A DNA stretch of 27,569 nt from a virus (Duplodnaviria; Heunggongvirae; Uroviricota; Caudoviricetes). The translations under genes were made by a program, and so were the position numbers. The stretch is from the IMG/VR virus record IMGVR_UViG_2582581022_000016; one strand, 5' to 3'. Below, one piece after another: positions 1,022 to 27,193 of the stretch. Below the pieces are notes generated by a model, which was given only the letters and a program-made list of their open reading frames with translations, searched no databases and was not told the DNA's origin. Position 1 is the stretch's first letter; each line of letters begins with the position of its first letter.

Positions 1022-1774
1022 ATGAACCTTGAAGCCTTACCAAAATATTACTCCCCAAAATCTCCAAAATTGAGCGATGACGCACCGGCGACAGGCTCAG
1101 GTGGTTTAACGATTACGGATGTGATGGCTGCGCAGGGGATGGTGCAGTCGAAAGCACCGCTTGGGTTTGCCTTATTCCTGGCAAAAGTTGGTGTTCAGGA
1201 TCCTCAGTTTGCGATTGAAGGTCTGCTCAATTACGCGATGGCACTGGATAACCCGACATTGAACAAATTGAGTGAAGAAACCCGGTTACAGATCATCCCT
1301 TACCTTGTGAATTTTGCCTTTGCTGATTATTCCAGGTCTGCGGCAAGTAAGGCTCGCTGTGAGCATTGTGCTGGTACTGGATTTCATAATGTATTGCGCG
1401 AAGTAGTGAAACACTCCAGAAGCGGTGAATCTGTTATCAAGGAGGAGTGGGTGAAGGAACTATGTCAGCATTGTCATGGTAAGGGAGAAGTCAGCACAGC
1501 GTGCAGAGGGTGTAAGGGGAAAGGTATTGTCCTGGATGAAAAAAGGACCCGGCTTCATGGCACGCCTGTTTATAAGATTTGTGGGCGTTGCAATGGAAAC
1601 CGGTTTAGCCGTTTACCAACCACACTGGCGCGGCATCATGTCCAGAAGCTGGTACCGGATCTGACGGATTATCAGTGGTACAAAGGATATGCAGATGTCA
1701 TTGATAAACTGGTTACAAAGTGCTGGCAGGAAGAAGAATATGCAGAGACACAATTGAGAAAAGTGACAAGATAA
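1022..1774 (+). CDS. Putative late-gene antiterminator (Q-like) with four DnaJ-type CxxCxGxG zinc-finger repeats
   Basis: ORF track starts at GTG 980; ATG 1022 with GGAG at 1011..1014 is the more likely start, giving 250 aa. Repeats CEHCAGTG, CQHCHGKG, CRGCKGKG, CGRCNGNR. Position immediately before a promoter/terminator pair and the lysis cassette fits a Q-type regulator. Confidence 0.5.
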   Translation: MNLEALPKYYSPKSPKLSDDAPATGSGGLTITDVMAAQGMVQSKAPLGFALFLAKVGVQDPQFAIEGLLNYAMALDNPTLNKLSEETRLQIIPYLVNFAFADYSRSAASKARCEHCAGTGFHNVLREVVKHSRSGESVIKEEWVKELCQHCHGKGEVSTACRGCKGKGIVLDEKRTRLHGTPVYKICGRCNGNRFSRLPTTLARHHVQKLVPDLTDYQWYKGYADVIDKLVTKCWQEEEYAETQLRKVTR

Positions 1775-24325: not shown

Positions 24326-24516
24326 CTGGTTTGGCTATTGCCAGATCCAAAGGCCGGATTGGTGGGCGTAGACCGAAGTTTAGCGACGAGCAGTGGCAAC
24401 AGATGGGAGCGCTCATAGCGGCAGGGAAATCACGGCGTTATGTTGCACGTATCTATAACGTTGGGCTATCAACCCTATATAAACGATTTCCTGTTACTGG
24501 CATTCAAACGAAATAA
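24319..24516 (+). pseudogene. C-terminal remnant of a serine invertase (Gin/Pin/Cin/Hin family): helix-turn-helix DNA-binding domain only, catalytic domain missing
   Basis: Translation [56 protein letters not shown] matches the C-terminal end of Hin/Gin-type invertases as I recall them. Similarity begins around 24319, overlapping the tfa stop. The frame is open back to a TAA at 24298..24300, with no room for the ~130-aa catalytic domain. ORF track reports a TTG-initiated 61-aa ORF at 24331..24516. Confidence 0.7.
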
Positions 24517-24659: not shown

Positions 24660-24908
24660 TTAGTGAACAAACCACTCGTCAGCAGATTCCCAGGTATCTT
24701 TCAGAGTCTCCTGAACAAAAGTTTTTGCAGAATCCTTATCTGCGGTGCGTGTAACAGAAAGGCCATCGTTGCTGGTGGCTTTTACGATCACCTCTACATC
24801 GTCATAACGTTTACTGATGCGTCGGGTTAATTCTTCCTTTAACGCATCCACAGCACCGGTTGGCATTTTAGTCATTTTTTCTTTGGCTATGCAGATTTCA
24901 ATACGCAT
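24660..24908 (-). CDS. dinI: DinI-family protein (DNA-damage-inducible protein I homolog, prophage-encoded)
   Basis: 82 aa. MRIEICIAK...LKEELTRRI...[16 protein letters not shown] matches E. coli DinI closely as I recall it. GAGGGA Shine-Dalgarno 5 nt upstream of the ATG on the minus strand; two LexA boxes upstream. Confidence 0.85.
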
Positions 24909-24969: not shown

Positions 24970-26067
24970 TCAAGGGGTCTTATTTCTGCTCCTTTGGAGC
25001 TCTTCAAAACGATTATGTAAAGATTTCGGATACAGTTCGGTATATACCTGCCATAGCACGTTTAATGAACGATGCCCTGTAACCTGGGCCACTTCCTCAA
25101 TACTAAAACCAGCCTCAAATAAGCGACTTGCCCCTTCTCTACGCAAATCATGGTATCGCAGATCCTTAATACCTAATTTGCTTCTTACCCTCTGAAATCC
25201 CGCAGTAACAGAAGTGCTGTTATATGGAAAAATGAATTCCGATTTTTTGGGCTGTCGTTGGACGATATCCCAGGCTTCCCCAAGCAAGGCTACTTTCATG
25301 TGGTTGCCTTCCTTTTTGCGTGGATCTTTCCTGTCTCTTACGAGTATAGATTTTTGTTCCTGGTCGAGATCTTCCCATCGTAACCGGCATACTTCTCCGA
25401 TTCGCATACAGGACCACACAGAAAATTTGAGGATATCAACGAACGGAATTTTTGAGCATTTATGAGTAGATCGTTGTTGAAGGCCTTCAATGAGCATGTC
25501 CAGTTCATCAGATGCTGGTCTACGATTACGACGGTTTGATTTACCAATCAAACCAAGTTTAAGTAGATATGGACGAGCACTTTTCGCCGGGTTTGATGTG
25601 TAATTAATTCCGTATACAGGTTTGGCCGCATCCAGAACACTGCCAAGATAACTAACATCGTGGCTGACTGTTGCTGGACCTGCGCCAGCGTTGTTTCTTA
25701 GCCTGCAATGTTCAATTACGTCATTTTCTGTCAGTTCAGATAGTTTGATCGCGGAGATGTCACTATCCATAAGCAGTTCCAGCACATATCTTTTAGTACG
25801 GCCTGCTTTACCTCCGGCATTTGGGTCATTTAAATATTTGTGTAGTAAGTCACGGACTGTAAGTCCGTCAACTGCATTTGATGATGGAATGCCATATAGA
25901 TCTAATTCCATCACTTTCTGTGTGCCCCATGTTTTGGCATGAGCATGTTTAGGGAATGTTTTGCTTTCCCTGTAAGTGATAACACCTTTTTCTTTGATAA
26001 TCACATTACAGCGATAGCGTGGTGTGCCATCGGATTTTAGTCGTTTCTCTATGTTATAGTACGCCAT
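24970..26067 (-). CDS. int: Tyrosine recombinase / phage integrase, dusA-associated type
   Basis: 365 aa with the catalytic signature of tyrosine recombinases (R in CMRIGEVCRLR, H-x-x-R in YHDLRREG, GHRS, Tyr near the C-terminus). Lower GC than tail genes. Divergently adjacent to the dusA 5' end. Confidence 0.9.
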   Translation of the reverse strand: MAYYNIEKRLKSDGTPRYRCNVIIKEKGVITYRESKTFPKHAHAKTWGTQKVMELDLYGIPSSNAVDGLTVRDLLHKYLNDPNAGGKAGRTKRYVLELLMDSDISAIKLSELTENDVIEHCRLRNNAGAGPATVSHDVSYLGSVLDAAKPVYGINYTSNPAKSARPYLLKLGLIGKSNRRNRRPASDELDMLIEGLQQRSTHKCSKIPFVDILKFSVWSCMRIGEVCRLRWEDLDQEQKSILVRDRKDPRKKEGNHMKVALLGEAWDIVQRQPKKSEFIFPYNSTSVTAGFQRVRSKLGIKDLRYHDLRREGASRLFEAGFSIEEVAQVTGHRSLNVLWQVYTELYPKSLHNRFEELQRSRNKTP

Positions 26068-26086
26068 TACACGACCTCGTTATTTC

Positions 26087-26122
26087 GGGTTCCCATAAAA
26101 CGTGGGAACCTGTGCGGGAACC
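26087..26122. repeat. Three copies of GGGAACC (one inverted at 26088..26094, two direct at 26104..26110 and 26116..26122) in the int-dusA intergenic region; candidate operator or recombinase-binding sites
   Basis: Read directly; GGGTTCCCA-TAAAACG-TGGGAACC forms an 8-bp inverted repeat, followed by a third direct copy. Confidence 0.35.
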
Positions 26123-26155
26123 TAATGCGAGAAAAATAGCCTGAAATGTTCAAAA

Positions 26156-27193
26156 ATGCACGATAATCATGAAACACAAAAAATTAATCAAACCAGCGTG
26201 ATGCCTGAAAAAACTGGTGTTTACTGGAATTCTCGGTTTAGCATTGCTCCTATGCTTGACTGGACGGACAGACATTGCCGTTATTTCTTGCGTCTGCTTT
26301 CCCGCAATACGTTGCTGTATACCGAAATGGTGACCACAGGGGCGATTATTCACGGTAAAGGTGATTACCTGGCGTACAGTGAAGAAGAACATCCGGTAGC
26401 GTTGCAACTCGGGGGTAGCGATCCGGCGGCGCTGGCACAGTGTGCGAAGCTGGCAGAAGCGCGTGGATACGATGAGATCAACCTGAATGTCGGCTGCCCG
26501 TCTGACCGGGTGCAGAACGGCATGTTTGGTGCGTGTCTGATGGGTAATGCGCAGCTGGTTGCCGACTGCGTGAAAGCGATGCGCGATGTGGTGTCGATTC
26601 CGGTGACGGTGAAAACGCGTATTGGCATCGATGATCAGGACAGCTATGAATTTCTCTGCGATTTCATCAACACCGTTTCCGGCAAAGGTGAGTGTGAGAT
26701 GTTCATCATCCACGCACGTAAAGCCTGGCTTTCTGGGTTAAGTCCGAAAGAAAACCGTGAGATCCCGCCGCTCGATTATCCGCGTGTGTATCAACTGAAG
26801 CGTGACTTTCCGCATCTGACGATGTCGATTAACGGTGGTATCAAGTCGCTGGAAGAAGCTAAAGCGCATTTGCAACATATGGATGGCGTGATGGTCGGGC
26901 GCGAGGCGTATCAGAATCCGGGTATTCTGGCGGCGGTAGACCGAGAGATTTTTGGTTCCTCGGATACTGATGCTGATCCGGTGGCGGTAGTGCGCGCCAT
27001 GTATCCGTACATTGAGCGTGAACTCAGCCAGGGTACGTATCTCGGCCATATTACCCGGCATATGCTGGGCTTGTTCCAGGGTATTCCTGGCGCGCGGCAG
27101 TGGCGGCGTTATTTAAGTGAAAATGCCCATAAAGCGGGTGCAGACATTAATGTGCTGGAACACGCGCTCAAACTGGTGGCGGATAAGCGTTAA
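26156..27193 (+). CDS. dusA: tRNA-dihydrouridine synthase A (host gene, integration target of the prophage)
   Basis: 345 aa. Dus-family motifs ([28 protein letters not shown]) and overall sequence match E. coli DusA as I recall it. Confidence 0.9.

Follow-up and report, generated by a model that had tools for sequence, protein, structure and literature searches.

The 27,569-nt stretch of viral DNA analysed here (the window) very probably carries attR, the right junction of a temperate phage similar to mEp460, integrated in the 5′ end of the Escherichia coli dusA gene by a tyrosine integrase of the dusA-specific family (DAI). Integrases at the dusA 5′ end were described by Farrugia et al. 2015 (NAR 43:4547, PMC4482086) in more than 200 genomes, Escherichia included; the element sequence replaces the 5′ end of dusA, semi-conserved 21-bp repeats mark attL and attR, and of 94 islands studied closely, about half were prophages. 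The observation of the preliminary description is confirmed and its interpretation supported, and the locus is a typical and very frequent example of this published system. Among 5426 complete E. coli genomes, 741 (~14%) have the int–dusA junction, and the same divergent arrangement occurs in the representatives of five other enterobacterial species. The gene identities, the anatomy of the junction, the origin of its segments, the position of the directionality factor gene and the conserved placing of the repeats are direct observations.

Two features may, on balance, be undescribed. The first is a rigid blueprint of probable arm-type sites in attP, whose recognition word has been swapped repeatedly among the dusA-specific integrases of Entero-, Pseudo-, Burkholderia-, Ralstonia- and Rhizobium-infecting phages. 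The second is a probably chimeric dusA in E. coli K-12, which would contain a fossil attR, with yjbL/yjbM as leftover cargo.

Table 1. Features of the int–dusA region, with positions in the window
Feature	Position	Strand	Remarks
C-terminal HTH fragment of a DNA invertase (61 aa, pI 11.6)	24331-24516		PF02796; phrog_125 positions 147-207 of 254
DinI-like gene	24660-24908		immediate neighbour of int
dusA-specific tyrosine integrase, by homology (365 aa)	24970-26067	-	PF00589 E=1.1e-20, residues 189-346
int–dusA spacer (88 bp)	26068-26155	.	outer part of the int-proximal attP arm, kept in attR
Putative arm-type site 1, GGGAACC inverted	26088-26094	-	164 bp from core
Putative arm-type site 2, GGGAACC	26104-26110	+	148 bp from core
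Putative arm-type site 3, GGGAACC	26116-26122	+	136 bp from core, 12 bp from site 2
dusA (345 aa)	26156-27193	+	PF01207 E=7.8e-105; NCBIfam DusA equivalog E=1.1e-168
Phage-supplied dusA 5′ end, codons 1-32 of the longest ORF	26156-26251	+	present in the attP of free phage mEp460
attR crossover core ATGCTTGA, dusA codons 33-35	26252-26259	+	attP/attB/attR alignment; attL of MS1679 and strain 6409
Host-derived remainder of dusA	26260-27193	+	98-99% identical to prophage-free alleles; PF01207, NCBIfam DusA equivalog

Junction anatomy and attachment core

The coordinates of the divergent int and dusA genes are confirmed (table 1), and the distance of 88 bp between their starts is counted from the longest dusA ORF. 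Met16 (26201) of this ORF corresponds to the native DusA start, and the alignment of the NCBIfam DusA equivalog model (NF008774) begins at residue 19. The gene is followed by pspG, as in E. coli. The spacer shows a single substitution relative to the attP of mEp460.

The attR of the window was aligned with the attP of free phage mEp460 (NC_019716), the attB of the prophage-free strains BL21 and AREA_R504 (R504), and the attL of related lysogens. In mEp460, the DNA beside int includes 96 nt that resemble the dusA 5′ end; this segment extends to ...ATTGCTCCT-ATGCTCGA and is followed by phage DNA, TAGGATGTACCG... The window consists of mEp460-type phage sequence up to ATGCTTGA and of host dusA thereafter. 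Upstream of the core, it agrees with the prophage-free alleles at 78 of 96 positions (K-12 type) or 38 of 96 (zur-adjacent type), and downstream at 98–99 of 100 positions with both types. The C/T difference between ATGCTCGA and ATGCTTGA is a synonymous host polymorphism, and native attB sites show the same variation.

The opposite junction was located in two lysogens of different background, MS1679 and strain 6409. Their attL is composed of a native dusA 5′ fragment, ATGCTYGA and the phage sequence TAGGATGTACCG; in closely related lysogens, the native fragment adjoins zur or yjbM. The imperfect attL/attR repeat spans 27 bp (26243-26269; 21 of 27 identical) and is centred on the perfect 8-mer ATGCTTGA, compared with the ~21 bp of the published description (Farrugia et al. 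2015). A core of the form CCnATG(C/A)TnGA is common to nine phage attPs.

By these alignments, the crossover is at ATGCTTGA; this core codes for residues M-L-D of the conserved segment APMLDWTD, and the preceding dusA codons (1-32) are therefore of phage origin. The preliminary description had expected the core within the first ~100 bp of the dusA ORF and about 30 phage-derived codons; the core occupies nt 97-104, and the exact figure is 32 codons, with the same 5′ segment carried by the attP of mEp460. Identity to the prophage-free alleles falls upstream of 26252, and the 5′ end is not identical to theirs. In MS1679 and strain 6409, the other prophage end, for which a search by direct repeat had been proposed, falls at a dusA 5′ fragment instead of a tRNA gene; the attL of the prophage in the window is outside the sequence analysed. 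A base-exact att core and phage/host boundary aid the annotation of prophage boundaries.

Integration most likely proceeds as follows. The phage attP brings, beside int, a 96-nt copy-like substitute for the dusA 5′ end. Strand exchange takes place in or beside ATGCTYGA, at presumed cleavage positions, and the host's own dusA 5′ fragment is left stranded at attL. The dusA body is joined in frame to the phage-borne 5′ end, presumably with a phage-borne promoter, and DusA therefore stays intact. A scan of the spacer for a sigma-70 promoter of dusA or int gave no convincing candidate, the best matches being 8/12. For IMEVchUSA3, experiments showed that the island brings a promoter and re-establishes the reading frame of dusA (Durand et al. 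2021, PLoS Genet, PMC8409611). Nothing essential separates the locus from the DAIs of Farrugia et al. 2015, with which it shares the divergent tyrosine integrase, the conserved 5′ insertion, the new 5′ end and the imperfect att repeats.

Integrase, prophage and directionality factor

The integrase protein is 98.6–100% identical to five phage integrases, those of mEp460 and SKA5 (OR670062) among them. At the DNA level, int as well as the whole int–attP region is 99.8% identical to SKA5 and 99.0% to mEp460. Ten sequenced E. coli phage records (including SKA5, mEp460, Lys8385Vzw, PhiR40_1 and relatives, phiSTEC1575-Stx2k and 1720a-02) show 97.7–99.8% DNA identity over the int region. In a tblastn search of phage records, the homologues span 27–100% protein identity, and those at 27–69% are integrases of Yersinia, Vibrio, Pseudomonas, Burkholderia, Ralstonia and Acinetobacter phages. 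A dusA 5′ mimic is present in every attP of these homologues that was examined, as in the class of Farrugia et al. 2015, and this bears out the earlier suggestion that the integrase targets the dusA 5′ end. Judged by its phage homologues and by the anatomy of the locus, the ORF at 24970-26067 very probably belongs to the dusA-specific integrases of that study. A scan of viral contigs with Int kept 80 loci, of which 79 are 98–100% identical and the remaining one 89%; since these are too alike for comparative work, the diverged relatives were taken from the tblastn search.

Phages mEp460 and SKA5 have the same order of int, dinI-like gene, attP and a PrtN-family 'excisionase'. However, mEp460 has siphovirus late genes and a tail fibre like that of lambda, while the window, which includes only late genes and the right end of the prophage, has a contractile-tail and baseplate module. 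The int–att module is a mosaic cassette common to different phage bodies. In strain MS1679, a near-identical junction (99.8%) belongs to a prophage of ~39 kb between zur and dusA, with which the window is 97–99% collinear over most of its length.

The absence of a xis beside int, noted in the preliminary description, stands, but the accompanying statement that no small basic ORF is found there does not. The basic HTH ORF at 24331-24516 is ruled out as a Xis, being the C-terminal fragment of a DNA invertase. No xis accompanies int because the directionality factor, RdfN, is encoded on the opposite side of attP, that is, at the far left end of the prophage. The search of the rest of the prophage, which had been proposed earlier, revealed a PrtN-family RdfN across attP from int in both the MS1679 prophage and mEp460. 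In detail, PF11112 (PrtN family) matches proteins of the MS1679 prophage, mEp460, YeP1, GP4 and Haddon with E-values of 3e-23 to 7e-32. The protein of the MS1679 prophage and mEp460 also matches phrog_1300 'excisionase' and is encoded 1.3–1.5 kb past attP; in the near-identical prophage, the gene is at 38481-38762 (L004; E=3e-23), and its mEp460 counterpart is gp25. Neither attL nor rdfN was found inside the 27.6-kb window, because the window ends in the prophage regulatory region, upstream of the late genes.

RdfN is the experimentally shown RDF of a dusA-specific integrase and is located across attP (Durand et al. 2021), and a prtN homologue was reported in 60 of the 94 islands (64%), its role being left open (Farrugia et al. 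2015). By homology, excision of the present phage would require RdfN, encoded across attP from int; in the prophage, its gene would sit at the left end, ~37 kb off. This placement accounts for the failure of searches for an int-adjacent excisionase in dusA-specific integrases. The IMEVchUSA3 Int/RdfN system is similar in its dusA 5′ target, in the absence of a xis beside int and in a PrtN-family RdfN across attP. On the contrary, IMEVchUSA3 is an IncC-mobilisable island with rdfN driven by AcaCD, and the phage described here is lambdoid-regulated with a Mu-like contractile tail module.

It is unlikely that this copy is a defective, immobile prophage remnant, with a fossil junction that no longer works in recombination. 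Some decay is seen in the truncated invertase gene (24331-24516), the related prophage of MS1679 contains pseudogenes, and the left end lies beyond the window. Nevertheless, int is full length and 99.7–100% identical to the integrases of SKA5 and Lys8385Vzw, whose named hosts are E. coli strains, the three arm repeats and the core are all intact, and the late region keeps its 97–99% collinearity with a complete 39-kb prophage.

The GGGAACC repeats on the two arms of attP

The inverted pair and the third, direct copy of GGGAACC, which had been described in the spacer as possible operators or arm-type sites, are present at 26088 (-), 26104 (+) and 26116 (+). They are three of the six copies in the whole window and lie 21–55 bp upstream of the int start codon. 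Only two places in the window contain any 7-mer at least three times within 40 bp, namely the GGGAACC cluster and ATTTTGG at 1040-1064, and first-order Markov resamples in this motif-unbiased test have a mean of 0.08 such places. The cluster is non-random. The far attP arm, the one that ends up in attL after integration, carries GGGAGCC and GGGAACC 51 and 62 bp beyond the core, 11 bp apart, and both distal repeats are seen at attL in MS1679 and strain 6409. Thus attP has five sites relative to the core, at -164 (inverted), -148, -136, +51 and +62, and these are distinct from the core sequence.

The five-site layout recurs in nine diverged dusA-targeting lineages, each with its own 7–8-mer. The diverged attPs come from the tblastn relatives, with Int identities from 69% down to 32%, and in each of them a dusA 5′ mimic is present whose end reads APM(L/M/I)D. 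The repeated word is GGGAACC (GGGARCC) in the window and mEp460, GGGGTGCT in YeP1, AGGGTGAC in C5a, GGAGCAC in AS1, GTAGCAA in BcepIL02 and GP4, TTACCAC in Haddon, TCGTACC in RHph_Y3_56_1 and GGTGTMC in a Pluralibacter prophage. These words were picked post hoc as the most repeated k-mers, which makes the shuffle statistics optimistic, and the argument rests on the conservation of position.

Within each group, the offsets of the sites from the core are kept to 1–2 bp. Inverted outer copies, one or two per lineage, are positioned at -164 to -199 from the core ATG; the counterpart of site 1 is an inverted copy at the same place in YeP1 and falls within that range in AS1, BcepIL02, GP4 and Haddon. 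In seven lineages the counterpart of site 2 lies at -147 to -149, whereas BcepIL02 and GP4 have it at -158/-159; that of site 3 lies at -136 to -138 or at -146/-147. The int-side pair is thus placed at -148/-136, or, in BcepIL02 and GP4, at -158/-146 and -159/-147. The far pair lies at +50/+61 or +71/+82, depending on the lineage.

Between the two options raised in the preliminary description, this conservation of position across nine lineages favours arm-type sites, and the GGGAACC repeats are likely to be sites of this kind for the integrase. A fixed geometry with a changing word fits arm sites which co-evolve with the arm-binding domain of the integrase. If so, the swapped words would constitute a natural series for arm-site specificity co-evolving with the integrase N-terminal domain, and a confirmed blueprint could lead to orthogonal Int/arm/core sets for recombinase engineering. 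The N-terminal domain would presumably bind the three GGGAACC copies, and bridging between arms and core would assemble a lambda-like intasome. Arm sites are not mentioned in Farrugia et al. 2015 or Durand et al. 2021, and a full-text literature search on dusA arm-type sites returned general papers only.

The protein evidence, consisting of the model of the N-terminal domain and the alignment with lambda Int, is weaker and agrees with arm sites. In the AlphaFold (AF2) model of Int (overall pLDDT 84.8), residues 2–58 are predicted to form a three-strand sheet and a helix (pLDDT 94.9), followed by a flexible low-confidence linker, a helical core-binding domain and a catalytic domain. Foldseek matched the model to full-length lambda Int and Tn1549 Int, and the fold also to XerA and Cre. 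The alignment with lambda Int covers the entire length, with a structural-alignment identity of only ~17%. When the N-terminus was compared with Pfam for a known arm-binding family, a sub-threshold Int_N match in the core-binding region was the sole result.

The predicted three-domain layout resembles that of the heterobivalent lambda Int, with its arm sites P1, P2 and P′1-3 in attP. Further similarities are the short non-core repeats on both arms, ~50–165 bp from the core here, and the separate small RDF. Unlike in lambda, the RDF belongs to the PrtN fold family and its gene is separated from int by attP, the insertion target is the 5′ end of a protein-coding gene which needs rebuilding, and arm binding is putative.

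A less favoured possibility, decidedly improbable, is that the repeats are not arm sites and serve as operators of a transcription factor or of RdfN for divergent int and dusA promoters. Their place in the 88-bp divergent spacer, so close to the int start codon, is where regulation would be expected, and RdfN and PrtN proteins bind DNA (Durand et al. 2021). Moreover, RdfN varies by lineage as Int does, and the turnover of the motif alone cannot discriminate between the two. However, the motif appears again 51–62 bp past the core on the far arm, beside an unrelated gene and distant from any promoter of int or dusA. Irrespective of the flanking genes, nine lineages preserve the two-arm layout, the 11–12-bp spacing and the fixed distances from the core. 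The Xis sites of lambda-type systems are limited to one arm. With the repeats taken as arm sites, a dual use in which they also autoregulate int is plausible, because of their location 21–55 bp upstream of its start codon.

The dusA 5′ end in E. coli K-12 and other enterobacteria

Across 80 enterobacterial species, the native N-terminus of DusA is short (M-x-x-E-S-Q-...), and in Escherichia zur is located 209 bp upstream. Of the five genomes with an adjacent dusA-specific integrase, four (L090, L105, L148 and L149) have a long N-terminus (MH-x-N-x-E...PE...W-x-GRFS), and the fifth (L138) has a hybrid N-terminus with a native-like C-terminal part. The long type is also found with no integrase within 3 kb in L102, L147 and L150, and partly in L122. 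In E. coli K-12 and BL21, dusA is of the long type, is not accompanied by an integrase and has yjbL/yjbM between itself and zur. By identity classes, roughly two-thirds of complete E. coli genomes carry this K-12-type gene. It shows 86% DNA identity to the element-borne version in Kosakonia, and its divergence from the short type starts exactly at the att core. The left boundary in K-12 is a deletion reaching towards zur.

To judge from these comparisons, the dusA 5′ end of K-12 is of the element-borne type and probably represents a fossil attR. A fossil attL or a remnant of int was searched for upstream of K-12 dusA and none was found; since neither survives, the evidence consists of the right boundary and the N-terminus type. 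If confirmed, a chimeric dusA would alter the reading of the annotated N-terminus and of the promoter of this reference gene.

That the unusual dusA 5′ end of the window is a mere host allele, with the upstream int having replaced nothing, is hardly credible: the similar long 5′ end of about two-thirds of the E. coli genomes, which have no integrase, speaks for it, but it is refuted by the attP of the free phage mEp460, which holds the segment followed by phage DNA, and it is further contradicted by the second, native 5′ fragment which lysogens retain at attL, by the full long type or (once) the hybrid in all five integrase-adjacent genomes, and by the different, short N-terminus of zur-adjacent Escherichia alleles.

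In reviews, 'yjbM', 'zur' and 'dusA' are treated as distinct insertion sites of Stx phages. The arrangement of the locus suggests that these are one site, named after different neighbour genes.

Element-type 5′ ends of dusA and the attachment core

The long, element-type 5′ end (MHGNSEMQKINQTSAMPEKTDVHWSGRFSVAPMLD) is also found on the dusA gene of K-12/BL21-type strains, where no integrase is present. Loci L001 and L089, with the BL21-type order zur-yjbL/M-dusA in E. coli, were compared with the prophage-free strain AREA_R504 (L003) and loci L091-L095 over the equivalent of the first segment of dusA in the window (26156-26259). The point at which the K-12/BL21-type allele diverges from the native, zur-adjacent allele is exactly the att core. 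Long-type dusA without an integrase occurs in about two-thirds of the complete E. coli genomes. In sequence, the K-12/BL21-type dusA 5′ end has the appearance of a fossil attR, left by a dusA-specific element that has since decayed, and yjbL and yjbM (DUF2713) look like cargo left over from such an element.

The core reads ATGCTTGA in attR of the window and attL of the related lysogen MS1679, and ATGCTCGA in attP of the free phage mEp460, in BL21, in AREA_R504 and in attL of lysogen 6409. The difference is a synonymous Leu polymorphism, and the T at this position is also present in many native zur-type attB sites.

In the literature, "yjbM," "zur," and "dusA" are given as separate insertion sites of Stx phages (PMC8065619). 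These are probably one site, the dusA 5′ end, with the three names probably derived from whichever gene flanks attL in the two E. coli backgrounds; the loci considered were L004, from MS1679, and L173.

The element-borne extension opens with AAAATGCACGRTAAT, which encodes M-H-x-N. This start is kept at the same position in the window, in L085, in three enterobacterial genomes with an adjacent dusA-specific integrase (L105, L148, and L149) and in the BL21-type L089, with the integrases of the elements sharing it being only 64-83% identical. Met16 is the equivalent of the start of native DusA, yet the extension start upstream of it is conserved. The conservation may reflect a translated extension, an opposite-strand promoter for int, or a site for an accessory protein.

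Genes and repeats of the window

Features of the window considered in this part
Feature	Position	Strand	Remark
ATTTTGG x3	1040-1064		at junction of early/regulatory-region ORFs 103-1008 and 980-1774
DNA-invertase C-terminal HTH ORF, 61 aa	24331-24516	+	PF02796; phrog_125 positions 147-207 of 254
DinI-like gene	24660-24908	-	PF06183; adjoins int
Start of dusA extension	26156-26170		AAAATGCACGRTAAT
Core polymorphism	26257		ATGCTTGA/ATGCTCGA

The HTH ORF, immediately preceded by a tail-fibre assembly gene, starts with TTG, encodes a very basic product and lacks the invertase catalytic domain. Its sequence identifies it as what is left, after truncation, of a Gin/Cin/Pin-type switch for tail-fibre inversion.

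The DinI-like gene adjoins int in mEp460 as well, and in the diverged dusA-targeting phage YeP1 a gene for "DNA-damage-inducible protein I" lies a few genes away from int. Among enterobacterial members, this gene appears to move with the int-att cassette, despite their differing late-gene modules.

Besides the GGGAACC cluster, only the ATTTTGG cluster packs three copies of a single 7-mer into 40 bp or less of the window.

Host range of the integrase family

The dusA-specific integrase family has been described as restricted to Proteobacteria. In the search of phage records, members were found in three phages assigned to nonproteobacterial hosts: the Elizabethkingia phage EKP1 (OM284015) carries an integrase of the family at 67% identity, and two Bacillus phages (OR820920 and MW749009) carry members at 34-38%. 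These occurrences could represent misassigned hosts or a genuine spread of the family.
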